A stretch of 64,000 nucleotides of DNA, taken from Catajapyx aquilonaris (taxonomy: Eukaryota). Within the stretch, counting starts at the first letter, position 1. Each line of letters opens with the position of its first letter. A program made the position numbers and the translations under genes. The notes beneath the pieces were generated by a model that did not search any database, was not told the DNA's origin, and saw nothing but the letters and a program-made list of their open reading frames with translations. Of this stretch, positions 3,201 to 62,415 are shown one piece after another. The stretch lies in NCBI GenBank assembly GCA_000934665.2, contig JYFJ02000072.1, forward strand, positions 62,001 through 126,000, given 5' to 3'.

Positions 3201-5561
3201 TTTATTTTGTGAGGAATTATGGTAGCACGCAACGAGAATTATGCATCCAAATGCTAATTTTTGGCTTGATTTGTGTTGGGCAAACGCCTTCGAAACTAGA
3301 TCCACTTAACAATTATTGCGCAAAACTTAAAGGTGCTGGAAGTGCTATTAAGCTATCTAATCAGAGGCAGCGTTAAAACGGGTGCTTAGAGTATAATCCA
3401 TAATATTGGCTCGTTGAGTGTTTCGGCAGATATAAACGTTGATGAAATGGTGCGTTCAGGCTGAAGTAAAAAGTTGGAGCCGAAATATTGACCAGCCATC
3501 GGCTCAGTCCTGCCTCCATCCTGCAGTGTCCTAAGCTATCCTCGCCCCAGGATTATGGCCCAACTTATGTGTCCTGGTTGGCAATATGAAAGTTCGGATG
3601 CTGCAGGAGGCGGAAGGGGAGATGAAGCTTATCAAGGGTAGTGAATGAAGATATGGGTGTAGTCATAGTGGATCAAGTCGAGCCAAGTCTCCTTCCCATG
3701 GAGTATGCGGGATTGATGCTTCCGCTTCCTCGCCTTCGCTTGATTGCAAGGCAGCCAGGCTTGCTCGCCTACCGAGGCACTGACTTTGGCCAGGAGCCTT
3801 GTGCTTTGCGATCCATACATCGATTTTGTATTAATCACTCGTGTCATCCTATCAAATCGGGGTGCAATAAGGCGTTCTGTTTTTGAATTGCTTTTCAAAT
3901 ATTATGGGGGCGGTGATAGGTAAAATGACGTTTATCCTGACATGATGCAGCATAAGAGTCTCAATTGATGTGCAGGTGACGGGGTTTACAGGGTGAACGG
4001 TTTGAAACGACAACTGAGGTTGTTGGAGTCCATATATCCAGAGGATATGTAGTGAGATGAAATAGCCAGCAGTTTATTGCATTATTCAATGAGTAGCCTT
4101 ATGCAGTGGCCAAACCTACAGCTGACTGAAACCTAATAATTATTTACATAACCTACACTTACTCTAAGTGTTTCGGTGTTGACACAAAATTATTAATGAA
4201 TGACCAGGGCTCTAACATCGCATTTTTGGTCTGCCCTTGTCAGTATTGCTCTTGGAACAGCGTTACTGTCAGAGTAACTATAAATTTGTAATATTAACCT
4301 CCTTTTTGCGTTCCTTTCTGCCTGCTAAGGTGCCCTTGTATTGGTAACGTGACACGCAAATATTAGGCTTTCATGTTCCTTTTGCTTGCAGCATGCAAGT
4401 GCGTGATCACTTTTTCTGATACTTGTTGATACTGCATTATTACTCTGAGCTCTGACTAATGCTTCTCTATGTCATAATTGTGAGCTTAAAAGCATTGCAA
4501 CAGTATATAGGTTATGCTGGATGGGCGGATGTACATTTTACACTACTTTTTAAAATGTGAAAGCATCTCAAGTGAAGTGCAGCAGTACAGTACAACACCG
4601 TGGGGTCCTATGAGCTGTATTAGGATTTGCTACCAGCAACAAAGCCGTCTCTGAGAAAAATCACTCTCTGTCATGGGATCCGGAAGGGGAAAATTCAGCG
4701 CAGAGTACACATATAACCATAAAAAAAAGAAGGTTGTTTGCTTCTGAACAAAAGTTTTTTTTTGCATTCTGAGTGAATCGAAATTCGGGAAGAAGGCCGC
4801 GTAAGGGCCGGAGACAAGATAGCGGAATGATGGTTGTTCCTTGCGCCTAGTTCCCTCGAGATGCTTCCGACTGAAAGCGTAGTTTGCATTTGCTGTCTGC
4901 ACCAAATTCGCTCTGGCGCCACTCCTGCCTCCTTGTCGCAGATTGGCTCACGGAACTTGGCCCGGAACAGCTTTTAGAGCTGCTTATTGCTCCAATTGGG
5001 CCGATTTTCCCAGGGAAAAGGGGGGCACTTTGCCTTTTGCCACGTGGACGGAAAGGCCAATGCAGAGTTCTAAAGAGGAGGCGGTTCTTGGAGAATTTAC
5101 TGCCCCCATGGGCGCCAGAAGGACCCTGGATCATAATTCAGGGCTATGCTATTTTCCGCTCTGGCAAAAACTGGAGTTCCCCTGACTGCTAATCTTCCTC
5201 ATCTGCGAAAAGCCCTGGTCAAAGACCGTGGAGCGCAAGAAGGGAAAATCCAACCCGTTGTGGGGAGCTCAACATTGCTTGCGGACACAGGCAGATGTTG
5301 CTGTACTGGCCTATATCTGGAAAGGGCTTTTCCAACATGTATATACACAGTGGTGGATTAAACCAGATTTTCGGCTTGGTAATTTTTTTTAGAAATATGT
5401 TTATTATTTTGCTTATCTGCATAAAGCGGTTTCATAATATTATCAGAGAGTGCCAAACATATGTTTTTGGTTAAATGCTGGTATTCCATATGATTGTGTA
5501 AAACCTGCATAGTTTCCTCTCTCGACACATTGTCCCTTTCCCACTTGAACAAAATCCGGGG

Positions 5562-5739
5562 CTGCTTCCACTCCAGCCGTGTTTGAACCCCACTCGCACT
5601 TTTCATCAGGGATGAAAATTTCCCCCGGGAGATTTACCGTCAACAAGAATGTGTTTCCCTGTAAACCGGGGGCTTGTCGCAGCTGATAATGCCCCGCCGT
5701 TATTTTCCCCCGGCAGTTTCAAACATGATGGAAATGCAG
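5562..5739. mobile_element. Degenerate inverted-repeat element (possible old MITE)
   Basis: CTGCTTCCA...CCGTGTTTGAA pairs imperfectly with TTCAAACATGATGGAAATGCAG, and there are internal TTCCCCCGG/CCGGGGG motifs. Boundaries are approximate. Confidence 0.35.
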
Positions 5740-6330
5740 ATCACTTCAGCGGCTTAGTTGCTGCAGTGCTACGAAAGTTACTTTTGGGCTCCAGCCACAC
5801 TGCATAGTCGCTTGATTGAACGTGATAATAATCACCTATAGGCGCATAATTACTGCAAGTTGAAAGTTAATGTATCAAGTTACGTGCAGTTTAACAATTG
5901 CCACGGCCTCTTCAACGGGAGTGTGCTAGGTGACGGTGGAATGAAGTTCTCTCCAGTACTACATATTAATTATGGAATAGTCAGTGGATGAAGTGGAGCC
6001 TGGTAAAAATCCTTTCAAAAGTAGGGAACTGGAAGACTTGCTGATTTATTTTTAGAATTATTCGGCCTACGACCTCATGTGAACCAGAAGTTTCGTACTT
6101 TCTCAGTAAAAATTAGCAGACGGAAAAATCATTCTGACTGCATGCCAAAAAAGCGAAAGGGCTCAGTTTAATATTTTTGCAGCCATTAATCTGCATCACG
6201 GTGTGTCAATTTTAGCGTGCTTTCAATATTTCGGAAATCGTCGTGGGAAATTCCAAAATATTCAATTCACAACTTTATTAAAAGCCCTGGCCACCATCAC
6301 GCTCATTTGCACAGAGCTATATTAAGCAAT

Positions 6331-6580
6331 AGAAGGGGTTAGTGCCATAACGTGCTAAGCCACACTTTTGTGTTTTTTGAGCTTGCACGTGTCTGAAAGT
6401 CCCACCATCGTGCTTCACAAGTGGGCATCACGTAGTTAGAAAAATTCCCCATAGATCACGAGAAAATCACGAATAATGTTCCTTGTTTTGTATGATTTCC
6501 ATATTAAGCCAAACTTTTGAAAGCCCATATCTCAGAATGAAGGTTTTGTGGCTTAGCACGTTATGGCACTAACCCATTCT
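6331..6580. mobile_element. MITE with ~34-bp terminal inverted repeats
   Basis: Left AGAAGGGGTTAGTGCCATAACGTGCTAAGCCACA and right TGTGGCTTAGCACGTTATGGCACTAACCCATTCT differ by one mismatch. The interior is non-coding. CAAT occurs at both flanks, but the exact TSD is ambiguous. Confidence 0.8.
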
Positions 6581-9500
6581 TCAATCCAAACAGCGAGTTT
6601 GCAATGGCAGCTCAATTTTTACACACCAAACGCCAGATATTCCATTTAGCACCCGCCAGCAATTCACTAATCCGTACCTGCTGCTGCAGGCATGGTTATT
6701 TTGGTTAATGTAACGCTAGCATGCTTCTGACTGGAGGTGTATTCAGAATCCATGCAGCAGGGGGTGCGGTTCGAGACCAATAGGTCTTCTCGCTGTCATG
6801 CGGTCGAGCAAGCAGGACGTAAAAGGATCGCATGAGCTTTGTCGCGGCCTGTGGAATTGCGGCTAATTGCATGCGGGCGTCGCAACAACTCCGACATCCC
6901 TCCTAGATTATAGAGCCCAACTACTCCGACACAATAGGCCTTCTGCACGCAGCCTGCAGCAACTTGCGTCGACCGATATCTGTATAGCCCACTCCATTTC
7001 TCATTGCGTCCTATGGACAACCCTGCTATACCTCCTATTACATATGGGAAAAGCTGCATGCCTTTTCGGGGCCACATTGTGTACAGCAGAGGGTTTAATT
7101 TTAGAATTGCCAGTTTGTTCAGGCCATTATTGACGCCCAATTTAATGGGAGTCGATAATTTAAAGGACATGTCGTGTTTTCTGATGGCAGTGAGGGGCCC
7201 TGCATGTGTGGAGAGAATTCGCTCAGAATTTCAACAAGTGGTGTATAGTGTATACTCAAGATATTTAACTTATATTATCATAAGCAAAATATGTATGGAG
7301 GCGTTATACTGGTATATGCATGTTACGCTAATTTTAATAGACCACCTGAAATTTGATAACCAAAACAAGAGAATGTGCTGCTAAAGTCAACGCGGGGCTA
7401 TTATGTAAATGTTTTCAAAAGGCGAGAGAAGGTTGTAATAATAATAATACTTGGTACATTAGGGGCATTTCAATGCTGACCCAGCCTATGAGGCCCTGCA
7501 GCTCATAGTTGTTTCGAGAGGACACAGAATTGCGAATTTTGTGCATTTTAAAATTAGTCTTTGTAAGATAGGTACCGGTATGCCATTGTTTTGATATTGC
7601 TATTGCGTTGTTAAGTGCTGTATTTTTGCCATTTTTGATCCAGCATAATCGCTTAATTTTAAAAATAACGTATCAAGAACAAACCATTCTGGTTCCTATA
7701 GAAAGGAGGCCACTCTGAGGACTGACCATCGCAATGTATCACTTTTCTTTATGTATTTCCCCATCCCAAGTTTCCACGACAGACACGTTTCAGCTTATAT
7801 GAAGGAACCCCAGTCATATCCCATATTAAAGCACCCCGGGAGTGTATCCGTGCTCTGAAGTCAGAGCAGGGCAGTGGCACTGTAGATCCTCCATTGATCC
7901 CAGAGTGTTGTTGACAAAGACACGGACAAGTCCAAGGATGGAGCACTCCATCACGGCTTTGTTATAAAAATATTGTCCCAGGATTACGTTCAGCCTCTCT
8001 CCTGCTAAGTGGCCTAAGGACAAACTCATCGTTGCTAATACACACAATTCGCCACGTTCCAATATTTGCACAGAGATTTTATGACTCTATGGCTGGATGG
8101 GTATAGCAAGAAGAATATTAGAAATGAAACATGGCAGCTTAGGGATAAATACGCCGAGGCTGCAATGTAATTCCACACCTCCCAGAGAGGTGCTTTGTAA
8201 TGTTTATTGCTAGAATCCTGTTGCAGTAGCTTGTACACACGGGGCCAAATAGTACACTGCCACTGCAGGTACTACGTACTATGGCGTTTCCGCTCTTCCA
8301 TGCCCCTAATCAATAGGCGCCATGGCCGTCGGGGTGGACACTTTTAGCTCTCACAGCCGAATTTTTTTTGTGTGCGCCTTTTGTATTTTTGTGTGCGGGT
8401 GGGAAGGGGGATGAGGGCGGATCGTGTGTGGTGTGAATTCCAATAGAACCAGAAGTGTTGTCGAGCATTAAAAATGGGCTGGGACAAAAATGGATATTTT
8501 TCCCGCTGCCGAAGGAAACGCGTGGCATTGGATTTCTGTCATCGGAATCGGATGCGGTGACATGTCATGTTTGTGTGACAGGCTGACCTTTCATGAGGTC
8601 GAGGATGTATTTCACACGTTTGGTAAGAATACTGATGAATGTTTCGGACGGATCGTTGCTCTTGTCAAAATACCACCCATGCTATACATCATTGGCAATA
8701 TTATTGTCCTCAACATAGCGTATACAGTACAGTACAGTACACAGTACGAAAAGTAATCCTGATCCTGCAGGTTATGCCAAACGTGATACAAGGGTGCTTG
8801 CCTACGAGGTTAGGATGAAAGCAGAACGAGGTGTACACATTCTGGAGGTAAAGATGATTAATGAGATAGGCTTATTTTATTGTAGATGTGTCAATTGGCC
8901 TGCGATGCTTTGTAATCGAAATTACTTGCTTTGTATATACCACGAACTATATGGCATACCCAGGAAAATATTTGCATCCGAGAGTTGAATTTCTCTGAAA
9001 ATGGCTAACAAACAGTCGCTCGGATGCATGCAGCGCTTGTGCTATAGTGCAGTGTACATATTGAACGCCAATTATCTCGCAGTAACGAGGTGTCGCCTAC
9101 CAAGTGAATCTTTGCATAAAATGATCGTGGAGTGACCCAGAATTCATCCCACGTCTCTCCGTCTGCAACAGTTTAGATTGGCACACAAATAACTCTAGTT
9201 GGTATGCCTGCAAGAAATGCACACCTATAAGAAAATATTGAATTAGTATAAGAACGCCAGGTGATAATGTCCATTGTTTCTCTCTTCCTTTTGAACCATA
9301 GCTCCTGGTTTATAACTCAATTTGAGGCTTCTGAGATGGGAAAAGCTGGAATCACAACCCTTAGTAAAAAGGCGTTTGAAAAACCTTGGTAACTTGGTTG
9401 GAGGGAACAAAAGCGTTATAGAGACCATTACAATGCAATTCCCCCACGCAATTTGGTCCCCGAGACTATATAGTGTCCTCCATTTTGGAAGAGAGACGGC

Positions 9501-10201
9501 TAGGTCTTAAATCTCCACGTGTGCCGGAGAACAAAGAGGAAGATGGGGAGGAAAAGGCTGATGGGGAGTACTGTCCTGATGTTGCGTAAGTAAATTTCTC
9601 AGCCATTTCCTCCCGACTTAACGACACACTTGGCATTCAAATGTGATGAGCGAGGGCGCTTTGTAGATGGAGCAGAACAAATTGGGGGGATAAGTTATCG
9701 CGACGGAATAGGAAGAGGTTGCTATCAGGCCTTTAGGGAGAGCCAGCCGATGGGCTGCTTCGGATTCGAAGGCGACAGTCAAGTCGAGGAAGGACCAGAT
9801 ATCGCGACCCGCTTCTTGGGAACGGATCAAAAAGACTAATAAGCGAGGGTATAAGCTTAGGGGAAGATCAAGCGAATTTTGATGTAAGGAGAAAGAGCTC
9901 TCGATGGAAATTCATGAGCAGAGGGTTCAGGTGGGCGATATTAGTCAGCTGCAGGAGATGTGATCTTATCTTCATCTTTATGGATCTGGTGCTTAGGCGT
10001 GCGGGAGCCGTTGAGCTCCATCCATTTTCTGGAGTGTAATGATTCATGTAAATGGTGTAGCTCATGAATGGCACTGTGACATAATGTTGCAGCTTTGTTG
10101 GTGTGAGACTGTGAGTAAGTGAACTGTTGTGATATAAGAAGCTTGGAAGCTCGCCTTCGTCCGACGTCACTGCCTTTTGAACATCCATCCACCGCTAGAA
10201 G

Positions 10202-10724
10202 ATGAACCGCATCTATTACGACGACCACAACAATGTTGTGGTGGGTGAAGATGACATCAACGAGAACCTCCGATTCTCCAAAGTGCCCCTGGTCACTCCG
10301 GAGGACTATCTTCTGGCCAATGGACCACCCCCATCGCCGCTTGCGACCACTTCTCTGGACCAGTCTCCGGAGGATGTTTCCCGGAGCTCCCCCAAGGCCA
10401 AAAGAGTGTATGGTGAGGCGCAGGTGCCAGAACCGAGGTGGAAGAAAAGTTACCACCAAAGTTACGGTCGGTTTGTGAGTCGCATGACCCGCATGGACAT
10501 CTCCAGGCGCTTTACAGTCGACTTGCATGGCTTGGAAGAGAAGTGGAGGAGGTCTGTAGCTGCATCCATGGGATGCAGGAGCACCATGGAAGAGGCGTTC
10601 CTCAAGTTCAGGAAGGATCGTTGCGAGCAGGCGTTCGCGTTCAAGAAGGATTTCAAGTTCGGGGTACGAAGATCTCCCAGCTCCAAGTCGTCCGCTTCGA
10701 CAACGCTCTCCACTGCTGAAACAG
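10202..10724 (+). CDS. Candidate first coding exon of the DBS/MCF2L-like RhoGEF (long isoform)
   Basis: ATG-initiated 174-codon frame with coding-like composition (MNRIYYDD...WRRSVAASMGCRSTMEEAFLKFRKD...TAET). It ends at donor AG|GTTTGT in phase 1, matching the phase-1 acceptor TTGCAG|AT at 23556. The linkage is inferred, not shown. Confidence 0.55.
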
Positions 10725-10819
10725 GTTTGTAAACAGTATTTACCGCGAGATGACTTTTGGTACATGTGTACGAACTGGGGTCCAGTGTGAACTGGTAGCA
10801 TATTCAAATGGGGCGCCCG

Positions 10820-11460
10820 GGACCACATCCCTCTGCCAAGTGGACCCTTCCTTCGACGCATGCGCCGTGGCATCATCCGCACAGGGTGGGCTGAGGAGGG
10901 GGTGAGGGGATAGAGGCGCCCCCACCCCCACCCCCACCCACTGCCGACAGATCGAGACGCCGGCTGTGGTGGGTGGCTGGCGCTTGGCCTCTAAGCGCCA
11001 TGTTGACGGCCTTGGACCCCTGGCACTCAGGACACCAGGCGGAGGGCAGGGGAGGCCCCTGGGCGGAGGAAGGGGCGGCCGAATAGTCCGGGAGGGACCC
11101 CGGCCTCCGGAGACGGGATCCGCGCAGCTGCAAGGGTGAGCATGCGGGGACGGGGCAGGCACGCATCGCCCCTACCCTGCGGTGCCCTTTAGGCGCAGTT
11201 TTGTGCGTCTCGTTTGGTTGGGGGCGGGAGGGGAGATCCACCCATCTGCCATCGGCGGCAGGGGACGGAGGAAGGGGAGGCTTGCAAATCTCGACCTTTT
11301 CGGCCTGCTCGTGCTTGTCACAGGCGCCGCCTCCTCTTCCGACCTCGCCTCTCGCCCAGCTATGTGTGCCTTCCTTCCACACGTGCTTCCTGTGTTCGAC
11401 TCACTCGTCGCACGTGCCCATGTTTGCCCATTAATCCGTCCTCACTCACTCACTGATTGA
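10820..11460. promoter_or_regulatory. GC/CpG-rich island, candidate promoter or non-coding first exon
   Basis: Markedly GC- and CpG-rich with several GGGCGG boxes, in contrast to the AT-rich, CpG-poor DNA from 11.5 kb on. It lies upstream of the splice acceptor that precedes the 13204 ORF. Confidence 0.45.
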
Positions 11461-12011
11461 CCTGTCCACAGTCACTGATGGCCTGCACATGTCATGGAAA
11501 AAAAACACTAGTTCGTATTTATTGTGTGTGACTGCTTGTAAAGGGGTGTGGAAATGCACAAGAAGAAGAAAAAAAACATAGGCTGCTAGACAGGCATTGC
11601 TACCTGCCAGTAAAAATTTCGGTGCATGTTGTTCAGTCATACACGATTAGGCAATTAATTTAAATTCAGCAAGTTGACCAGGGCTTTTGATAGTTGGTGT
11701 TTGAAATGAGAGCCTAAGAGTGCCGCAACGCATCTCGCTATAGTGGATAACAGCTGTGAATGTTGACAATCCCATTAAAGGAGTTGTTCCTAAAGTATAT
11801 CAGACCAGCATTTTTCACGTCCCCCTAAATCCATGTCATGATTTTCCAGACCCCCATCCAGAGGCACATAATCCTCCTGTTAATAATATTTTAATAGTTC
11901 CCCTCCTCAAGCTTAGGATATTTGCTGCCACAAAACTAGACTTTGAATGCTACTATTGGCCTTGCTACAAGAAACTAGGAATCTGTAATTGGCTAATTGT
12001 ATAAAAGGGTA

Positions 12012-12186
12012 CAGTGAAACCTGTTCATAATGGACCCTGAGAGTAGTGGGAACCTGTCCATTGTGAAATTATTTTTGGTAAGGGTCATAGGGCGTGCAAT
12101 TATTTTTTGACTTCTATAATGGAAACATGCCCATCATGGAAAAATTTTCGGGTCCCATGAGATTCTGCTATACACAAGTTTCACTG
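12012..12186. mobile_element. pogo/Tigger-like MITE
   Basis: TA|CAGTGAAACCTGT ... ACAAGTTTCACTG|TA: CAGT termini with TA target duplications. Confidence 0.75.
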
Positions 12187-12274
12187 TATTAGGTCATTAT
12201 TCAGAATTGGAAGCGTCATAATTTTTTCATGTTTCTACTGACATGCTGGGATATACGCAACAGGATGTTCTATA

Positions 12275-12421
12275 CACTGTAAACCGCAAAACATTAAAAG
12301 AGCATCACTGGTGAGTCTCACATGGAACATCAATTTGTAATGCTCTTCTAATGCTCTTGTGATGCTCCTGTGATGCTTTTTTGTTGCTAAAAAGGGTTTT
12401 AATGATTTCAGGTTTACAGTG
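12275..12421. mobile_element. CACTG-terminated MITE (CMC/EnSpm-like)
   Basis: TA|CACTGTAAACC ... GGTTTACAGTG|TA, with subterminal GAGCATCAC/GTGATGCT repeats and 2-bp TA flanks. Confidence 0.7.
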
Positions 12422-12550
12422 TACTCAGTTGAGGTATCACAAATGAATTTCTGATTCCTAGAACAACTAAACTTCTAGCCATGAACATGCTGGCTTGCAG
12501 TTCATTAAAATTAAATGAAAAACCCACAAAGATGGCTATTTGAAATATTT

Positions 12551-12560
12551 AATAATAATA

Positions 12561-12599
<39 letters not shown>

Positions 12600-12624
12600 T
12601 AATAATAATAATAACAATAATAAT
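12551..12624. repeat. (AAT)n microsatellite, imperfect
   Basis: Run of AAT units with a few AAC/AAGT interruptions. Confidence 0.95.
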
Positions 12625-13203
12625 TCACCAGTATTTGTAACCTGTAGAAATTGAAATCATTATTGAGATTAACTGGTTTAAGTTGGCTGTCGGTAATATA
12701 GCTATAATTTTTTGAAAACTGTGACCTACCATTCTGAATAATTTCATATGATTCGATTTAAAATGCCTCCATATCATGGTCGGTTATTGTGGCACCAACT
12801 CCCTTCCCTGACCCATACCATGTTAAGGTACTGTACTTACCGATAGACATTAATAAGCAAATCAAGCCTGGCCATTATACTAAAATTAATACTTCATACT
12901 CCACATGGCAGGATCAGTATTGTGAAAAGGAGATGAGTCATGTGTAACCCACATTGTTGTGGTTAGTTGAATGCATGCTACTAATGAGGGGGAAGTCACT
13001 TTGGAACTTTGTCATACATTTCACCAGAAATACATGAGCCGATCTTACTTTCTTACAAGGTTAAGGTACAAGTCCACAAAAAGTCTGGCTGGATTTACCG
13101 AAATCTAAATCCCATCTTATGCAAAAATGTGGAGTGACTTACCTCTCTTGTAGCTAGTCAGGCACACATTTGTAACAGGGGTCATTCTTGGCAGTTAAGC
13201 ACA

Positions 13204-14733
13204 ATGGTGGATGCAGCAGAGAAAGAAGCAAGTGAAGTACTTCACTCCCTCCTGGCTGTGGAGCGCATAGAGAAGCCTACAGGTACCAACCAATTAGTGA
13301 ACAGTACAGCTGTAGTTTCTTCTGAGATGACTTCACTGGATCCAGCCCACTCCAAAGTAGGGGACGATGAATGGCATCAATCATTCCCTCCACGTTCTCT
13401 GGAGCAGCCATCCTTTCCAACACAAGAGCAAATGACATGGGACAACCACGTGAATCCAGAATTTGATGTTGCAGCACCAAGTGATGGAGAGGTTCCCCAA
13501 GACAACCAGGAGCCATCAAATCCTACTACATCACCTAAGAAAAAGAAGCGAAAACTGGCTGACCTGGTGGCTGCAGGGTTTGACCCAACCAAACTGGAGG
13601 ACAATCCAGAACAGGTAAAGGAGCGATTCACACAAGGATGTGAGTGCCAGGAGGACAACTGCTTCAAAGGAATGAACCCAGAGTTTGTGTATCGCCATCG
13701 TCTCAACATTGCAGAGCTAACAAAGGCAGAGCATGACATGTATCTGATGGGGGTGACCATGGCTTGCCTTGCAAATCCAGAAGAGACTGTTAGGCACAGG
13801 GAACGGAAAAGGTTGCGTGCCCGGTATGTATTCCAAGGGAAAGAAGTGTGCCTAGATGCATTCTTGTATCTTGAGAACTGCACTCACTACCAGCTAAAAC
13901 GCATCCGGAAGCATGTGATGACCCATGGAGTGACCCCAAGGATACATGGGAACCATGGAAAGAAGCCACACAACACTTTCTCTTTGGACATATATCAGCA
14001 TACTACTGCCTTTCTGCAGCATTACATACGAACATCAGTGTTAAATTCTGGAAGTGGCAGTCACGGCCAGCTGGGAAACAAGACTGGAAAAGTTGGACCA
14101 GGACATAAGGGTAAAAGTGCAGTGGTGAACCTTCCACAGGATGTTACAAGAAAGAAGATACATGTGGCATATCGCCAGTATTGTGCTCAGTTTGAACCCT
14201 CCATCAAAGTGATGGGCTACTCCAGCTTCCGGCATTTTATGAAAGAGCAGTTTCCAAATGTGAGATTTGCCAAAACTGAGCCCGGGAAGAGTGGAGTTGC
14301 AGGATCTGCTGGCGTCAGTGCAGGAGCTGGAGAAAATGCTCCAGTTTCCACCACCTCCACACCAGCTTCAGCCACAGTGTTGCCACCAACATCGCCCAAG
14401 TCAACCTTACCTACCATTCCCAACACTAGTGCAACCATCATACAGCAAGTGGCAATACCAGTTGTAGTTACAGCTACTAGTAGTGGTTCAGCAAGCCAGC
14501 AAGGACAAATTCAAACAGCAACTCAAGTGACAGCAAGTAGTGGGACTTACAGTCAGCCTGCTTTTGTAGTGACTCCTTTGTCACACTTGACATTGACTCA
14601 ATCTGAACAGGTGGGTTTTCCAACATGTCAGCTGCAACAGGTTGCTGCTGTGTATCATCACCAACCAGCCCAGATGACCATGGCTGTCACCAATGCTCCA
14701 TCCCACGCCAATTATGTCTTCCCATCTCTCTGA
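13204..14733 (+). CDS. Intronless 509-aa protein, probable domesticated Sola-type transposase N-terminal (Cys/His, DNA-binding) region with an S/T/Q-rich tail
   Basis: Uninterrupted ORF. Acceptor TCTTGGCAG sits just upstream of the ATG and AATAAA is at 14855. NLS-like PKKKKRK. The core CECQEDNC...YVFQGKEVCLDAFLYL...RIRKH...PRIHGNHGKKPHN...LPQDVTRKKIH..Y...C...F..FMKEQFPNVRF matches the layout I recall for Sola-like transposase N-termini. No DDD/E domain follows. Confidence 0.85.
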   Translation: MVDAAEKEASEVLHSLLAVERIEKPTGTNQLVNSTAVVSSEMTSLDPAHSKVGDDEWHQSFPPRSLEQPSFPTQEQMTWDNHVNPEFDVAAPSDGEVPQDNQEPSNPTTSPKKKKRKLADLVAAGFDPTKLEDNPEQVKERFTQGCECQEDNCFKGMNPEFVYRHRLNIAELTKAEHDMYLMGVTMACLANPEETVRHRERKRLRARYVFQGKEVCLDAFLYLENCTHYQLKRIRKHVMTHGVTPRIHGNHGKKPHNTFSLDIYQHTTAFLQHYIRTSVLNSGSGSHGQLGNKTGKVGPGHKGKSAVVNLPQDVTRKKIHVAYRQYCAQFEPSIKVMGYSSFRHFMKEQFPNVRFAKTEPGKSGVAGSAGVSAGAGENAPVSTTSTPASATVLPPTSPKSTLPTIPNTSATIIQQVAIPVVVTATSSGSASQQGQIQTATQVTASSGTYSQPAFVVTPLSHLTLTQSEQVGFPTCQLQQVAAVYHHQPAQMTMAVTNAPSHANYVFPSL

Positions 14734-14909
14734 TGATAGTTGACTCAAATATTGAGGTGTGTTTATTTCACTTGTCTTAGGTTGAAGGTGTCCCAAACAT
14801 GTGTCTTCATAAATGATTGGCGAAAGTGCTTGGGGTAACTTAAGAGGTCTGATTAATAAATAGCCAGTTTTTTTTGTGTGTGGGATATATATATATTTTT
14901 AAAAAAAAG

Positions 14910-15075: not shown

Positions 15076-15432
15076 CAGCTCCATGATTGGTTGTATGAAA
15101 GGAGATAAAATGGACAGCTTTCATACCTGAAATTGCTGGTAACCTGGATGAGTCAAATTTTGAGCCCAGAAAAAGAAGTAAGCTTCTACAAAAAATTTCT
15201 ATTCCAGTCAGAAAGTTTTCAATTGGCTTGGAAAAAAAATCTACAATTTTGGCTCAGGACCTTTTGCACAGAGTTGACACCAAGTTATAATTTGACACAA
15301 GTTATTCTTGGTATTTAAAATTTTGCTATCCATCAGCAGCACTTACGTTCTTATTGACAAATTTTGTGCCGGCCCAAAGGAGAACATTTTTCAGTTCAGA
15401 ATCTTATTACCATCTGGACTTGTTTCTAAGTG

Positions 15433-15619
15433 CAGTAAACGCTGGGTATAACAGACTTCAAGGGACTGCAGAAATCAGTCTGTTATAACCAAGGTCTGTT
15501 AAAGCTAAATACATAGGACCTTATGGAAGTATGGCAGGGCCAGCCTTTCAAGTCTGCTACAACCAAGAATCTGTTATAGCTGAGGCTGTGTGTCAGGATG
15601 TTATATCCAGAGTCAACTG
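15433..15619. mobile_element. pogo/Tigger-like MITE
   Basis: CAGTAAACGCTGGGTATAAC ... GTTATATCCAGAGTCAACTG|TA imperfect TIRs, with internal GTTATA repeats. Confidence 0.65.
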
Positions 15620-35285: not shown

Positions 35286-36296
35286 ATGTGCCAGTGCGAG
35301 CCCATACAGTCCCAAGCGGAGGACCCCAGGAGGGAGGAGTGCGCTGACCCCAGACTCACCCAGTGGTCACCATCATCTGACAAGAGGCCAGACAGCAACT
35401 ATGACAACATGGACCAGGAGAGGATACATCAAAGGCCATTCAAGTAAGTGTCAGCTATTGGACCACGGGCGTTATTATGCAAAGTGCCACGTGCGTTGCG
35501 TCATCTTTCTGTGCTCATTGCTCCCGTGTGTGTTTCCATAGGGCTATCATGGGGATGCCCCAGCCTGCTCACGTGGCGGCCCTTGTGGCGGCCGTGACCT
35601 CGGCCTTGCTGCTGATGCCATCAGATTCGGATCAAGGAGGAGGGACATTTCTACCGGCTCTCTTGTATATCTTCACTTTCGCAGCTCATGTTGGGACGCA
35701 ACTCTGGATGACATTTGTGGCAGGTGAGGCCAGTGTTAAGCCCTCTTTAATCACATCTGAAATCTGGTTAATCTTTCTAAAAAAATTTAAGCTAGTGACG
35801 TACGGATTATCGGTATTAATACTTGGCTTCCATCATTACAGGGATTCTGCTGTTCTTCAGGGTAGAGAGACGTACTTTCGGCCAAGTGCAGGGGATACTG
35901 TTTCCAGCATATTTCTTGCTGAATGGCCTGTTGGGGCTGGTGACCGTCACGTCGTTCCTCAGGTTACATCCAGATGCCCAGATGCAAGCTCTGGCTCTGG
36001 GTGGTGCTTCAGGGTGCGAGCTGCTGGCCAGGCTGGTGGTTGCTCCTCCTATGCTGAGGATAATGAATGCCAGGGCCGCCCTGGAGAGGCGATGGGGACT
36101 CAATCGCAAAGTGGGGAGGTTGACTCCCGAGGACTTGAGTGTGATTCCCGGTGCACAGTACCAGGATCTCCGCAAGAAGTTTGTAAGGCTGCATTCGGCT
36201 GCTGCCATGGCCAATCTGACTGCCCTCGCCTGCAATGCCTTTCACCTGTGCTATCTGGCTGCCAAGATCGCTCAAATATCGCAGCTGCCCAGCTAG
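35286..36296 (+). CDS. TMEM205: Transmembrane protein 205-like (DUF4149)
   Basis: Exons 35286-35443, 35542-35723 and 35842-36296 are phase-consistent. Motifs: QPAH, FAAHVGTQLWMTFVAG, RRTFGQVQGILFPAYF, YQDLRKKFVRLHSAAAMANL. AATAAA at 36497. Confidence 0.88.
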
Positions 36297-44522: not shown

Positions 44523-44529
44523 NNNNNNN
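44523..44529. other. Assembly gap (7 N) after a G homopolymer
   Basis: nnnnnnn directly follows a poly-G run. Confidence 1.
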
Positions 44530-54204: not shown

Positions 54205-54777
54205 CTATCTTCCTAAGAAGAGTCCAGCAATCATGGAGTGGCCATTGATAATAGCCAGCTTGAGGGGTGTCTCACCTTTAGAATTCAGCTCATTGTGTTT
54301 GGCTCCCGAGTCTTTGAGCAGCTTGGCGCATCCGTGTCGTCCGTTGGCCGCAGCCAGATGCAGAGCCGTGTCTGAGTCATCATTGGTAATGTCCAAGTCG
54401 GCGTCGTTTTCCACCAGCAACCGAAGAATGGCTTCGGACCCTTCCTTGGCCGCCAGATGGACCGCGGTGTTGCCCTTGTTGTCCTTCAGGTCGAGCAGGG
54501 CTTCGGCCTCGATTAACTGCTCGGCCACCTTGACATTGTTGCAAATGGCTGCAAAGTGCAAGGCGGTCAGACCCATTGGATCCTTCACATCCACGTTCGC
54601 GTTCTTCTGCAGCAACATCTCGGCGGACATGAACCCCGTGCTCATATCCTTGGCTGCCGAGTGCAGCATGGTGTGCCCAGAGGCTGACACCTGGTCCACG
54701 TCGAGGGTGTCTTCCTCCTCCACTGCCGCCTTGCCTTTCTTACCACCCTGCTTCATCTTAGAAGTTTTGCCGGACAT
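54205..54777 (-). CDS. Small ankyrin-repeat protein (190 aa, single coding exon)
   Basis: Repeats GHTMLHSAA, GLTALHFAA, GNTAVHLAA, SDTALHLAA and GETPLKLAI. Acceptor TTTCAG just upstream of the ATG. AATAAA on the minus strand at 54149-54154. Confidence 0.9.
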   Translation of the reverse strand: MSGKTSKMKQGGKKGKAAVEEEDTLDVDQVSASGHTMLHSAAKDMSTGFMSAEMLLQKNANVDVKDPMGLTALHFAAICNNVKVAEQLIEAEALLDLKDNKGNTAVHLAAKEGSEAILRLLVENDADLDITNDDSDTALHLAAANGRHGCAKLLKDSGAKHNELNSKGETPLKLAIINGHSMIAGLFLGR

Positions 54778-55264
54778 TACTTCTGAAATGACACACCCTC
54801 ACATCGCAATCAGTCTGGCTTGGGATTACAGAGTTTGGAAGCAATTTACCTGACTCCTCTTTTGCAAGGGTCTGTCCACCTAGCCGGATGAAATGTGATT
54901 GTTTCTGCTATCAGCAAGATAAGTACAGCTCTACAGGATAGGCCAACTGCAAATCTCGAGAGTACCAGGCAGGACTAATCGAAGGCACTTCCTTCATCTT
55001 ATCATGACTCAGGCGGATGAGGTTTATAGCAGGACTATGACATTTGCGAAGGCAAGCTATACATAAAGACATCCACACAAAGGCAAGTCCTGATTACTTG
55101 TATGTGGAATTGGAATGAGGAATTCTGTAAATGCAATGCTGCCGAAACGAAATGTTTTGTTTGAAGTGATGAGCATGAAAGGCATCACCATCTAATTACC
55201 CTTGAAATGGAAATGGAACCAAAATAACTAGAATGATTAATGTTGCGACCTGAGAAGAGCTTTA

Positions 55265-57232
55265 TTAACGACGAATCAGGCTCGACTGTCTTCGTGCTTT
55301 AAGTAGCATTTTTCTTTTTTCGAGAGCCTTTTCAATTTCTCCTTTGCTCGGGGTATGTTCGTCATATTTTGTGTCAATGAACTCTGTCCCCAATCGTCCA
55401 CTAGCTGCGTTATGATGTAGGACTATCTTAAGATGAGCTGCCATCTCCTCCAGCAACTTGGTGTAGCTGATAAACAAAACTATCATTAATGAAGAACTAG
55501 AATAAATCAGTAGGCCACCTACTTCTCCGATGTCGTTTCCATTTGTTTCAGAGCCAATAGTAAACGATTGATCCAAGCAGGATTAGTGAGGACAGTTTTT
55601 GTAGATACAAAGTCGTCGTGTCTCAAATGCCTTTCAAATTCTTCAGCCAAGGAAGAAAAATCTGCATCTGTAAAAGGGCAAAAGAATGTTCATCAAGTTC
55701 GAAACAAAAATTCATAATTATATTCTCGAACCTTTGAATGTTATTTCTGCTTTCACCACTCTATTAGTCTGAAGCCGACGAATAACATCTTTCTTCTCTT
55801 TCACAGCTAACTCTCTCTCGCGAGTAATATCTTTCTTGTTCTGCGTGGTGGTTTCTTGAACGTTCAAAATAATGATTCCCACAAATATGTTGGTTAGCAG
55901 TAAGTGACCCACACAAACGAAAGCTACGGCGAAAGCTCTTCCGAAATTACGCCATCCTGATTTTTCTAGGGCGATCACTACATCAGTCCAGCCGTCGATC
56001 TAGTTGCCAAAGTTAGTTTTATAGACGTTATAAAGCATTGCTATAATTAACGAAACCTACCGTAACCCATGAGAACAACGTCAATGTAGCCATCCCAAGA
56101 GACCCAAAATATTCCTGATTTCCCTTGAACAAGTTGAATCCAACTAGAGCAAATAGGTACATGACCAATAGCACCAGAAAAACCACGCTCAGGACATTGT
56201 GTGCCAAAGTGTCGAGCAAGGCTACCACCAACACCTGCAGATATACCGGTACTGTATGTCGCATCAAAGGGCTAAAACTATTAGCACCAAGGCAACATTA
56301 ACGTACTTGTAAAGTGGATGAAAACGAGACACTTCGTAGAGTTCTCAGAGTTCGAAAAGCTCTCAACACCTTAAACACTTGTGCGCCCTTGGTTCCAGTG
56401 CTGACAAACGACAAGAGCTCTTGAGCCATTGATCCGACAAGGATGGCGAAGTCAAAGATGTTAAATCCTGAGTCCCAATATTGAGTTGGCTCGGCGTATA
56501 TTTTGAACACAAATTCCAGGGTGTATATGGCCAGGAACACCTTCGCAAGAAGAAGGTAATTAATAATTGGTGAATGTTGATTAAAATTATGTTGACCTAC
56601 TTCATCCACTGCTGACAAAAAACCCTGCAAAAATGCAAGTGTGCGAAAAGTGTCCAGACACAAGAAGACTGCGTTGATCAGAATGCAGAGCATGATAAAA
56701 TTTTGAAACCAGTTTGATTCTGTCATGACCTGCAATGAAAGTACTCTCATTGTCATGTGTGATGTCTGAATATGGGGCGTACTGTACCTTTATGAAATCA
56801 TGAAGTTCTTTGTCTGGACGTATGCTCTCATCTTCTTCCTCGTCCGATGAGGATTCCCAATCCTGTGCATCATCTTTGCCTAAATACGTCTCCAACACTA
56901 TCGTCTCCTTCAATGACTTTCTTTTATTTCCTTGTCTCAATCTCCATGCTCGAGGAGAAAGTATTATCCTGGCAAAAACCCTAGCTATTCTTCTCGGTGC
57001 ATTACGAATCTGCCGGAAGATGCGTGCTAAAATACTCCTAGAATTTAATGCACGGTTTAATTCATGTCTTATTCGCTTCTGCTCTGCCTGCGACATCGTG
57101 CGTTTGGTCTGAAAAATGATATGAAAATATTTCAACTTGTATATCTTGCAGAATGATTTATATTGACGAAGCAGTTACCTTGCCCTGTGCATCATTCTGT
57201 AATAATTGCTGGCGTTGCGTCGGAGTCAACAT
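55265..57232 (-). CDS. CATSPER3: CatSper3-like sperm cation channel alpha subunit
   Basis: Eight phase-consistent exons: 57232-57179, 57108-56788, 56729-56601, 56540-56307, 56234-56061, 55999-55732, 55667-55523, 55466-55265. Single 6-TM domain: YTLEFVFKIYAEP..YW.SGFNIFDF, S4 KVLRAFRTLRTLR, pore TIDGWTD, S6 TNIFVGIIILN, a coiled coil and FSSLAEEFERHLRHDD. Confidence 0.85.
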
Positions 57233-57521: not shown

Positions 57522-59183
57522 TCAGCAGAGGATTTTGAGAAGGCGTGCGAAACGCAAGATGTCTTCGAAGCTGCAGTAAAGCGGAGATGGCGACACCCGT
57601 AGATATCCAGGCGGTCTGACATCACACTGAAAAATATACAGTACATGACCAATCTGATACGTGCACGATATTCAATTGGCGACATACCACAACTCCTCTG
57701 GACTCCAGAAATTGATGCACTTTTTTGATGTCCACGTTTGCAAAGTTTAGTGTGATAAGAGAACCTCTCTGAAGTGGATCTTGTGGAGTGACCACTTGGA
57801 TCTGATTAGGGTCAAAGTTTAGGCGAATAAGAAGTTCAAGGTATTCAGAGAGGCAGCGTTGCTTTTCCCGAATTTCGTCCATGCTTGTCAATGAGAATAT
57901 TTGCAAAGATGCATATAAAAGGCTTGCATGCCAAGGAGAAGGTGTTGTAATCCGGAAGGCTCTTGCTCCCTTGGAGACATCTATGTGTTCTTCCATGTTG
58001 AAACGAGTCTCAATTTTGTTTGACCACCACCCCACCAACGCTGGAGTTGTCGCTTGATGGCGATTGTGCACAAATATTCCTCCTAAGCCTCCAGCACCAC
58101 CACACAAATACTACCAGCAATGAAATGTATGAACAACAATTCGAAGAACGAGAGTAGCTGATACTTACTTTGTTGGAGCACCAGCAAGCAAAGTCCAGTC
58201 CCCACGAGTGAAGCTCCAGAGGAACATTTCCGACTGCATGAGCCAAGTCCCAGCCCACCAAACATCCCCGAGCTCTTGCCATTTGAGTAATCTTGGGAAT
58301 GTCTAAGAGCTGACCTACACCATGAAACATGTCAGTTTGAGCCAGTTGTTGCACGATACCACATTTTACCTGTTCGGAAGTTGATCCCTCCTAAAAACAC
58401 CACTGATAGGGTATCTCCATGCTCATCGATGGCTGCAATAATGTCTTCATTTCTAAGGAGGAATTCGCCTTTCCGAGGACCTACTTTGATCATGGCTTCT
58501 TCAATTGTGTGCCCATGGTGTTTAACCTGAGATTGCAACATGTACTGAAAGAATTGATGTTAATTAGTATGGACATCACTAGTCATGCATCATTAGTCGG
58601 TACCCTGTCAGAAGGAAAGGCTCCATCTTCGAAGAGTATCTTGAAGCGTGTTTGCGTCGGCTGGTAAAATGACAGCAGGAGCAAACCTATGTTGACACTG
58701 AGGCCATTGAGAAGAGCTACCTCTCCTGCGACCGCCCCGACCAATCTTTGCAAGCCTTCTTCGCAGGCTTCATCGCAGGAAATGACAGGAAGAGATCCGT
58801 GGACATAGCTGTGGGCGCCCCTGTTGGCAATGTGACACAATAAGAATCACTTTGTTTTACAATAACACGTGTATGGTACCATTGACCCCAGCTGTCCAAC
58901 TGCTCTTGGATGTACTTGTCTGCCGTTTTTGGCTTCAATCCAAGGGAATGCGTGCACAAGTATATGCAGTCATCATCAGGATGTACCGAATTCAAATCAC
59001 CTGCAAGTTGTTCAAGAAGAGTTTACTTTTATTCAGGACCGTGAGAATATTTTGCTTACAGTTGGGCAGTTGCTTCATTTTTGGAATGGTAAAATGCGAG
59101 CGAAGGTCCTTCAAAGGATCTAGAGCATCCATCATCTGAGCAAATTCCGTGCTTTCAGGATTCACATTGAGAGCCTTGGACAT
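57522..59183 (-). CDS. KYNU: Kynureninase paralogue A (divergent active site)
   Basis: Exons 59183-59060, 59000-58880, 58820-58604, 58544-58370, 58314-58169, 58110-57688, 57626-57522. Motifs: [57 protein letters not shown]. The reading frame is intact. The true start may lie upstream (in-frame exon 59337-59273). Confidence 0.9.
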
Positions 59184-60659: not shown

Positions 60660-62415
60660 TCAGTGCTGAGCAACAGTTATGGCATCCTCAATGGCCAAGA
60701 CGAAACGGTAGACATCCTTGAAAGTGTTGTACAATGGCACAGGAGTCACCCGCAGAAAACTAGGAGGGCGTAAGTCAGCCTGAAAAGCATTGTTACCAAT
60801 GTGAGTGTATAGTATACCAGTATGTTTCATCAAACAAAGATAGCTACTAACCACAACACCCCTTCGCTCCAGTTCGTGAAACACCTTGGCGAGTTCGACT
60901 CCATGCAGAAGGAGTGTCAGCTGTGCTCCTCTTTGCGTCGGGTCTCGAGGGGTCACGATTTCCAGTGTGTCAGGACGAAAGTGCAAGTTCAGTAGCACCT
61001 CCAAGTAGCCGGTCATTAGGCGCTGCTTTCCCCTCACTTCCTCGATGCTGGTTTGTTCAAACACCTTGTAAGAAAGAAGACAAGTGGTGTTGAAACACCA
61101 AGGGAACATCCAGGGTCGGTTGAACAAAAAATTACCCGCAGACTGGCCATCAGCAGAGACATGTGCCATGGAGATGGATTGCTCATTCGGAAGGCGTCTG
61201 CTCCTTCTGCCAAGTCCACATCTGGTCTCATCTCGAATCTGGTTTCATGTCTTCCGGACCACCAGCCCTGAAGTCGAGGATGCCAACGGGTATCGGTGTG
61301 ATGACGCTTGTGCACGAAGATCCCGCCCATTCCTCCTGCTCCGGAGTTCAGGTACTGGAAAGAACACGCTGTCACCAAGAAAAATCGACTGCCTCGGATT
61401 ATGTTTCTTACTTTGTAAGTGCACCAACAAGCAAAGTCCACATTCCAGTTGTGCAAGAAGAGCTGGACGTTGCCCACAGCATGAGCCAAGTCCCATCCGA
61501 CCATGCAGCCTTTCGCCTGAGCTGCTGATGTGATGGACTCTGCATCCAGCATTTGACCTGAGGAAACAGTGGCACATGTCAGCACTGAGAATTTTTGGTG
61601 ACATGGGACAGTACCAGTTCTGAAGTCAACGACGTTGAGAAACACGACAGCGATGGAATCTCCTTCTTTTTCAATAACATCTAGGATGTCTGAATTGCGC
61701 AAGATGTGCTCTCCAGGACGAGGACGCAGAAGAATCAGTGCCTCGGAAGGTGAATGGCCATGAAGTTTTGCTTGTGTTTGTGCCGCATACTAGAACGTCA
61801 GCCATTTTATTTCGGTACAGATAAAATTTGATGTGCTCTTACAAGATCAGAGCTGAAGGCACCCTCTTCCATGAGGATCTTGAACCGTGTGTCATCAGGA
61901 CTATAAAAAGTAGTCAGCAGGACATGAATATTGACAGTAAGGCTGTTCATCAGAGCAACCTCGTCCTGCTCTGCCCCTACCAACCGCCCCATGCCCTTCT
62001 TTGCAGGCTGGTCGCACAAGGCAGCAGGCCATCTTCCATTGTGATGCATGTGAACGCCCCTGAAATGAGCCAAACACATCTAATATTGCAGTCGGGAACA
62101 CCCCCGACAAACTCACCATTTCCCCCAGTTGGTCAGTTGCTCCCGAATGTATTGGTCGGCCATCCATGGTTTCAACCCCAGCGAATGGCCGCAGAGATAA
62201 AGGGCCTCGTCGTCCAGGTCAGCCAGGCCAATGTCAACTGCATGGTTGGTGATGTCAGTGTCAGTTTTTTAAGTATCGTAATCTGACTTACTGTTTGGAA
62301 GGTCCCTCATCTTGGGCATAGCAAACTGTCCTCGAAGAGGCCGCAAAGGATCGTGCTCGTCCATAAAATTGGCAAATTCCACCGAGTCCACTGAGACGTC
62401 GCTGACTTGTGCCAT
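60660..62415 (-). CDS. KYNU: Kynureninase paralogue B (canonical)
   Basis: Exons 62415-62292, 62237-62117, 62059-61843, 61789-61615, 61557-61412, 61354-61136, 61064-60852, 60779-60660. Motifs: [81 protein letters not shown] on the minus strand at 60582-60587. The start codon is uncertain. Confidence 0.92.

Follow-up and report, generated by a model that had tools for sequence, protein, structure and literature searches.

An arthropod gene probably domesticated from the DNA-binding half of a Sola2-type transposase

Time and again new regulators have arisen from domesticated transposases, and the question raised by the locus described here is whether it represents a further case. The locus lies in a stretch of 64,000 nucleotides (nt) from the genome of Catajapyx aquilonaris (assembly GCA_000934665.2, contig JYFJ02000072.1, positions 62,001 to 126,000 of the forward strand), which we refer to as the window, and it consists of a single open reading frame (ORF) at 13204..14733 encoding a protein, P0001, of 509 amino acids (aa). 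An initial reading made without database searches (the sequence-only reading) had proposed that P0001 was a domesticated Sola-type transposase in which the DNA-binding half was kept and the catalytic half replaced by a tail rich in S, T and Q. This proposal is now supported by the homology of the retained region, by the position at which that homology breaks off, by the lack of a match to a hidden Markov model (HMM) of the catalytic domain and by the grouping of the gene within an arthropod clade. We consider it highly probable that the gene arose by domestication of a Sola2-type transposase and is now a host gene, while towards a role as a transcription or chromatin factor we lean only slightly. 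The Sola superfamily itself is reportedly due to Bao, Jurka and Kapitonov in 2009.

Homology to DUF7869 transposases

P0001 was aligned with 21 insect and crustacean orthologues (alignment A1, 22 sequences), and the resulting profile was searched against 1.84 billion representative proteins. It matched 1015 proteins with an expectation value (E) of 0.001 or less, of which 376 reached E <= 1e-10 and 113 reached E <= 1e-30, and the best 150 of the 1015 matches were inspected. Among these 150, the weaker matches (E 1e-36 to 1e-23) included proteins from a bivalve, a sea hare and hemichordates, several of which carry the Pfam domain DUF7869 (PF25273) C-terminal to the matched region. The ESM Atlas yielded arthropod clusters only, together with a weak lead (0.75) to a cluster in which 11% of the members carry DUF7869.

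Two further alignments were prepared, one combining P0001-type proteins with their DUF7869 relatives (A2) and the other consisting of 30 full-length DUF7869 proteins (A3). In A2 the relatives track P0001 through a cysteine cluster and through the motifs VC...F, HGN.G..P.N and LP..T...H..Y..C up to FPH[IV]KF. Exactly at the end of that last motif the arthropod proteins diverge into a low-complexity tail, and the relatives run on into PRTDVCxKCE, a long helix or coiled coil, and the motifs HYTFDFAQ, HADNCxGQNKN and AGHTRCxVD. Profile-profile comparison of A1 with A3 by hhalign gave a probability of 100% and E 7.4e-45 over 209 columns, pairing aa 134-358 of P0001 with aa 146-349 of the DUF7869 protein P0260. 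C148, C153, C216, H237 and H248 of P0001 are invariant, and C146 nearly so, in both the host and the transposon types of protein (A1 and A2). On these alignments, the core of P0001 is homologous to the N-terminal approximately 210 aa of the DUF7869, or Sola2-type, transposases. The similarity had been expected to stop just before a D.C..C motif and the catalytic domain with its three aspartates (DDD), and this is where it stops, the relatives then continuing with PRTDVCxKCE.

The missing half has left no trace in the window. When five transposase-type proteins were compared with the window in all six frames by tblastn, only nt 13600-14310 were matched, and only by the N-terminal parts of the queries; no remnant of a catalytic domain was seen in any frame and therefore no decayed copy of it persists there. 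The same result rules out a candidate explanation of the tail as a frameshifted remnant of the catalytic domain. Likewise, the catalytic HMM matched neither the window ORF nor any of the 22 members of A1.

The argument depends on the DUF7869 proteins being transposases. An AlphaFold model of P0260, built with the 30-sequence alignment, has a mean predicted local distance difference test score (pLDDT) of 76.6, with most of the C-terminal half above 90, and from aa 426 onwards its strands and helices follow the RNase H order. D431 lies on strand 1, D516 immediately after strand 4 and D558 on the helix following strand 5; in A3 the first two are invariant and the third nearly so. Foldseek searches of the PDB with this model placed TnsB, the RSV, ASV and PFV integrase cores and IstA at the top (E 1.5e-3 to 7e-2, probability up to 0.97). 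Superposition with VIA-align gave Z 7.4-8.9 for retroviral integrase cores (root-mean-square deviation (rmsd) 2.4-3.0 over 122-136 residues) and Z 9.1 for Mos1, values that the tool ranks as middling, although they are uniform in family and span the whole core.

Evidence of mobility came from the DNA. Many DUF7869 clusters contain 10-95 member sequences at >= 90% identity, and among 80 loci fetched from metagenome contigs we found two element families (L058/L061/L062 and L042/L056/L079), each represented by three copies that lie on separate contigs of a single assembly. The copies are 99.3-100% identical over about 3.4 kb (3399-3454 bp) and have sharp ends. All six are flanked by target-site duplications (TSDs) of 4 bp, of which five are ATAT and one AAAT, and they start with 5'-GTGACC and end with GGTCAC-3' within imperfect terminal inverted repeats (TIRs) matching at 25/27 or 29/30 positions. 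Each element carries two ORFs, which are matched both by an HMM built from the arthropod cores alone (E 2e-31, covering HMM positions 2-217, and E 2e-20) and by the catalytic HMM (E 1e-113 to 1e-125). The DUF7869 proteins are thus transposases, and profile similarity between P0001 and transposases, on which the sequence-only reading had staked its case, is borne out by both the hhalign comparison and the recognition of these TIR- and TSD-bounded elements by the arthropod-only HMM. As a side observation, both families appear to be young, a single intron divides their transposase gene, and ATAT is preferred for insertion.

Sola2-type elements are characterised by 4-bp AT-rich TSDs (AWWT; ATAT, AAAT or ATTT) and short imperfect TIRs of 12-13 or 21 bp (Bao and Jurka 2013, PMC3627910). 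With their 4-bp ATAT or AAAT TSDs and imperfect TIRs, here of 27-30 bp, the relatives fit Sola2 on each of these published hallmarks that could be tested (PMC3627910), and the earlier label of Sola2-like is therefore apt. The strings DNCxGQN and GQNKN, and Sola alignments, were not found in the searched part of the supplement of Majorek et al. Taken with the modelled fold of P0260, these hallmarks show DUF7869 to be the catalytic, integrase/RNase H-like half of Sola2-type transposases.

A single-copy gene conserved in arthropods

The window ORF behaves as an immobile gene. Sequencing depth over the ORF, in a DNA run that may be from the source sample, is 32.9 as compared with 34.1 for the neighbouring unique contig, and there is one copy of the gene within the window, so that the single-copy status for which a check had been advised is upheld. 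The only inverted repeats bracketing the ORF are a chance-like, AT-rich pair of 15 nt at 12441/15630; TIRs and 4-bp AT-rich TSDs, which the elements of the relatives possess in six of six copies, were not found around it, in line with the earlier statement that no TIRs hug the ORF. The window ORF is single-copy and non-mobile, and in place of dispersed near-identical copies with TIRs or TSDs we find unique depth, no TIRs and membership of a conserved arthropod clade.

That clade emerged from a comparison of 375 stored proteins, of which 280 cover the core nearly fully. A core score of at least 150 bits was reached by 175 of the 280, and none of these 175 matched the catalytic HMM; the remaining 105 scored below 150 bits and 98 of them matched it. 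Six of the seven low-scoring proteins lacking the match have <= 43 residues past the core, which is consistent with truncated records, and the seventh is P0244 from Aplysia. For the tree, 269 rows spanning at least 195 core HMM positions were thinned to 132, a row being dropped when its identity to one already kept exceeded 80% (host type) or 70% (transposon type). In the resulting unrooted tree all 55 host-type rows fall into one clade, with a support of 100 in the Shimodaira-Hasegawa-like approximate likelihood ratio test (SH-aLRT) and a stem of 0.60. The median pairwise distance is 1.16 inside the host clade versus 2.21 among the transposon-type rows.

P0244 was considered as an orthologue and rejected, as it lies outside the arthropod clade. 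It is one of three Aplysia californica proteins (with P0394 and P0396), encoded on one 1.38-Mb contig, that combine the transposase N-terminal module with an S/T/Q-rich tail and have no catalytic domain; a search for relatives of P0244 returned named proteins only from Aplysia, together with one unnamed record. Given the place of P0244 in the tree, the truncation or domestication of this family may have been independent and restricted to its lineage.

A search of a large protein collection with P0001 returned 315 relatives with E <= 0.001, the best of them at E 7e-123, which places the ORF far beyond chance. Names and sources were taken from the best 120 of the 315, and all source names among these are arthropod and all the proteins are 'uncharacterized' or 'hypothetical'. 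The insects listed comprise cockroaches, termites, locusts, stick insects, mayflies, beetles, a lacewing and Hymenoptera, and the crustaceans Oratosquilla (a mantis shrimp), Darwinula (an ostracod) and Amphibalanus (a barnacle); further named members come from Hemiptera, Lepidoptera, Collembola and another ostracod.

Conservation along the protein is uneven, as the mean identities to the 21 orthologues illustrate:

aa 1-24: 59%
aa 25-127: 16%
aa 128-281: 76% (range 70-81%)
aa 282-306: 7%
aa 307-358: 61%
aa 359-509 (tail): 15%

Alternation of this sort between highly conserved blocks and drifting linkers, seen from insects to crustaceans, is the pattern that a host gene under purifying selection shows, as judged at the protein level. 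The identity over the whole core (aa 128-358) is 60-71%, and by this protein measure the family ranks with the better conserved of the unnamed insect and crustacean genes.

The features of the locus, with their window coordinates and strand, are as follows:

13204..14733 (+): coding sequence of P0001, an uninterrupted frame with a start backed by the N-terminal motif shared by the orthologues
13210..13275 (+): conserved N-terminal helix, aa 3-24, DAAEKEASEVLHSLLAVERIEK, from the alignments (59% mean identity over aa 1-24) and the model
13537..13554 (+): basic cluster KKKKRK, aa 112-117, a candidate nuclear localisation signal (NLS) present at the same place in most orthologues
13585..14277 (+): putative transposase-derived core, aa 128-358, from hhalign, tblastn and 60-71% identity to the 21 orthologues
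13639..13662 (+): cysteine cluster C146-x-C148-x4-C153 (CxCx4C), with C148 and C153 invariant and C146 nearly so, a candidate zinc site together with C216 and H237/H248
13945..13974 (+): HGNHGKKPHN, aa 248-257, predicted linker between two sub-domains, a loop of low pLDDT with H248 and G249 unchanged in every aligned host and transposon form
13978..14277 (+): predicted winged-helix sub-domain, aa 259-358, from the model, VIA-align and a weak Pfam RFX_DNA_binding match in 16/22 orthologues
14047-14121 (+): variable loop rich in G, S and K, aa 282-306, interrupting the predicted winged helix in the alignment
14278..14730 (+): tail rich in S, T, A, Q and V, aa 359-509, in place of the catalytic half, from its composition and the motifs of orthologues
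14855..14860 (+): AATAAA, a candidate polyadenylation signal 122 nt past the stop, a lone hexamer in an AT-rich stretch and by itself not significant
13193..13194 (+): AG of a candidate splice acceptor in the 5' untranslated region (ttcttggcag), preceded by a short pyrimidine run, from a reading of the sequence

The coding sequence is complete, intronless and without internal stops over its 509 codons (stop included in the coordinates), exactly as first described. It begins at the first ATG after an in-frame stop, in a stop-to-stop frame that opens at 13138, and the ATG at 13204 is supported as the start by the N-terminus common to the orthologues, with which it coincides. The motifs first listed for it were mostly located again, among them the NLS-like cluster, HGNxGxxPxN, VCxxxF (as VCLDAF at aa 215-220) and LP..TRK..H..Y...C (as LPQDVTRKKIHVAYRQYC at aa 310-327). 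The exception is the cysteine cluster, which had been given as CxCx3C; that spacing is the one found in the transposon relatives, whereas the window ORF has CxCx4C.

Both ends of the protein carry features of their own. The model contains a helix at aa 4-18, and within this amphipathic N-terminal helix lies LHSLL (aa 13-17, window 13240-13254), an LxxLL motif which we take to resemble a nuclear-receptor box. It is retained in most, but not all, of the aligned orthologues, and the N-terminal LxxLL helix is absent from the transposon relatives in the alignment. The tail of about 150 aa described earlier is indeed of low complexity, with 61% S, T, A, Q and V over its 151 aa (359-509) and five charged residues, yet it is not featureless, as the short hydrophobic motifs QQV.IPLVV, F.VTPV, SYQLT and a terminal Y.F..L are common to the aligned orthologues.

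Proposed mode of action and rival explanations

The explanation that we favour is that a Sola2-type DNA transposase was domesticated in an ancestor common to insects and crustaceans. It would have kept its N-terminal DNA-binding region, consisting of a Cys/His helical module, the HGNxGxxPxN linker and a winged helix, and lost the other half, from the D.C..C motif through the coiled coil to the DDD catalytic domain of RNase H-like type. In the model, aa 128-245 approximately are predicted to form the helical Cys/His module, and aa 259-358 approximately are predicted to form the winged helix. The invariance of C148, C153, C216, H237 and H248 in both forms suggests a zinc site, and the module is probably zinc-stabilised. 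As laid out here, the retained region is reminiscent of the bipartite regions with which other transposases bind DNA. To it would have been added, in the host, the N-terminal LxxLL helix, the basic NLS-like cluster and the S/T/Q-rich tail with its short motifs, and in A2 the helix, the cluster at its NLS position and the tail motifs are all absent from the transposon proteins. From the retained DNA-binding layout and these host-specific additions, we read P0001 as a nuclear, sequence-specific factor that recruits partners. The protein would bind specific DNA sequences via its core, and the N-terminal helix and tail motifs would recruit the partners with which it could act as a transcription or chromatin factor. 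Judging from its sequence, P0001 most likely binds DNA and zinc, enters the nucleus and has a regulatory role.

Several points weigh against parts of this explanation. The AlphaFold model of P0001 has a mean pLDDT of 53.8, exceeding 90 at aa 261-280 and 311-350 and being poor elsewhere, and Foldseek found no match to it in the PDB with E <= 0.001. A sequence search of the PDB with P0001 gave chance-level matches only. Superposition of aa 260-362 of this mixed-confidence model on the winged helices of many different proteins by VIA-align gave Z 4.7-7.5 and rmsd 2.0-3.7 over 63-69 aa, all within the range that the tool calls middling, with the best value for the WHB domain of APC2 (Z 7.5, rmsd 2.0 over 64 aa) and with RFX5 at Z 5.9 and the DNA-binding domain of RFX1 at Z 4.7. 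In Pfam the core module has no family of its own, and the sole match of P0001 is RFX_DNA_binding (PF02257) at aa 314-354, with E 0.026 and 15.6 bits against a threshold of 27; similar sub-threshold matches occur in 16 of the 22 orthologues, the best having E 6e-4. Thus the predicted winged helix aligns weakly with the RFX domain and superposes on RFX5 and RFX1, but it scores below the Pfam threshold, and the WHB domains of Cullin and APC2 and the winged helices of ORC score equally well or better; what is shared would be a fold and not membership of the RFX family. Moreover, the name Sola2 derives from the TSD and TIR hallmarks and the DDD domain and not from reference Sola2 sequences, the taxonomic range is given by name only, with many database relatives carrying no source name, and the tree is unrooted, so that topology alone gives no direction of transfer, from transposon to host or the reverse.

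The last point bears on the possibility that the Cys/His and winged-helix module is an old host domain captured by an ancestor of the transposons, the arthropod gene being the original. The host clade lies on one side of a single branch and a root there is possible. The fused form, module with catalytic domain, occurs in several phyla (by name in molluscs, hemichordates and an annelid), and the stand-alone form is known by name only from insects, Collembola and crustaceans; it is on this distribution that we base the direction from transposon to host. Since, in addition, no other host family with the module appeared among the best 150 of the 1015 profile matches, and Pfam has no family for it, we judge a host origin to be improbable. 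Still less credible is that the ORF has no host function and is just a transposon copy, truncated and either newly inserted or in decay, or else the ORF of a non-autonomous element. Its lack of introns and its homology to a transposase speak for this, as do the high-copy repeats within 1 kb on either side. Against this stand its unique depth (32.9 versus 34.1), its intact frame of 509 aa without TIRs or TSDs, the monophyletic clade that it forms together with orthologues of many insect orders and of crustaceans, and the conserved host-specific motifs at both termini that the transposon proteins lack; we give this explanation hardly any weight.

The main rival concerning function accepts domestication and holds that it served the control of transposons, a catalytically dead protein sitting on the ends of Sola2-type elements or derived MITEs (miniature inverted-repeat transposable elements) and blocking their transposition in the manner of a KP-type repressor, with no general regulatory role. 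The half that has been retained is the one that, in DDE transposases generally, recognises element ends, and an HMM built from the arthropod host proteins alone still recognises the N-terminal half of transposases (E 2e-31). The core is, however, 70-81% identical over aa 128-281 across hundreds of millions of years, and the transposon-type proteins diverge about twice as fast as the host clade, which points to a host target that stays constant and not to an arms race in which element ends keep changing. Recruitment of partners is also suggested by the conserved additions, the LxxLL helix and the motifs of the tail, and a dedicated repressor of Sola2-type elements seems to us unlikely. As to the favoured explanation, domestication followed by a regulatory role in the host, it has a bolder version that we put forward only tentatively: that the gene represents the founding domestication of the Sola superfamily, a single-copy transcription factor family throughout insects and crustaceans with an undescribed DNA-binding domain and an LxxLL helix that perhaps docks nuclear receptors or co-regulators. 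If this were true, it would be more than 400 million years since the DNA-binding domain of a transposase became part of hormonal or developmental gene regulation in arthropods.

Surroundings and comparison with known systems

Just upstream of the gene, at 12113-12514, lies a MITE-like repeat of very high copy number, with a depth of about 4700-7118 as compared with about 33 for unique sequence, and with arms (12273-12299 and 12397-12423) of 27 nt that are 89% complementary and 97 nt apart. It is followed by a (TAA)n/(TAATAA)n microsatellite at 12549-12630. A second high-copy repeat (15329-15500; depth about 1155), containing a small palindrome at 15443-15491, begins about 600 nt downstream of the stop. 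Further upstream, the region 10000-12000 is a GC-rich island (GC 0.535 versus about 0.42 around it) with long open frames at 9941-10990 (-), 10199-10732 (+; no Pfam match) and 10873-11400 (-), and this island could be a CpG-island promoter or a 5' exon of the window gene or of a neighbour.

Elsewhere in the window, host exons at 54205-54798 (-), 56298-56789 (-) and 35820-36296 (+) encode ankyrin repeats, part of an Ion_trans channel and a DUF4149 domain, and the gene therefore lies in an ordinary gene-bearing region. Separate exons at 57622-58110 (-) and 60660-61244 (-) match the C-terminal domain of kynureninase (KYNU_C; E 1.4e-7 and 1.4e-16), which suggests tandem kynureninase gene copies; a frame adjoining the latter exon, at 61034-61789 (-), has no Pfam match. 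The assembly has a gap, a run of 7 N, at 44523-44529.

For an unnamed family annotated as 'uncharacterized', these results supply an origin together with a map of its domains, and they put forward DNA binding as a function that can be tested; they also identify DUF7869 as the catalytic domain of Sola2-type transposases. Orthologues occur in tractable species, including Tribolium, Blattella and relatives of aphids, in which knock-down and DNA-binding assays are feasible. A literature search, which included the locus identifiers of orthologues and covered papers other than subscription ones and bioRxiv supplements, found no paper describing a Sola-derived host gene or gene family, or DUF7869. 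Host genes derived from transposase DNA-binding domains are a known kind, and within the literature found no domestication has been reported for the Sola superfamily, so that the window gene would be a new member of that kind.

Among known systems, the closest are the Sola2 transposons, with which the window core shares homology over the N-terminal approximately 210 aa of the transposases of elements bearing Sola2 hallmarks. The window ORF differs from them in its single copy, in its cysteine spacing and in lacking the D.C..C motif, coiled coil, catalytic domain, TIRs and TSDs; with the catalytic half and the element ends missing, it would be Sola2-derived but not itself a transposase. Similarly, the DUF7869 proteins of molluscs, hemichordates and annelids have the N-terminal module in common with P0001, whereas the DUF7869 domain, their catalytic half, is absent from the window ORF and from 175 of 175 host-type proteins. 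Other host genes built from transposase DNA-binding domains encode the CENP-B/pogo-derived, THAP-domain and ZBED/hAT-derived proteins. The same logic applies to these, the DNA-binding part having been kept in a single-copy host gene and catalysis lost or become dispensable, but the window gene would stem from another superfamily and employ another DNA-binding fold.

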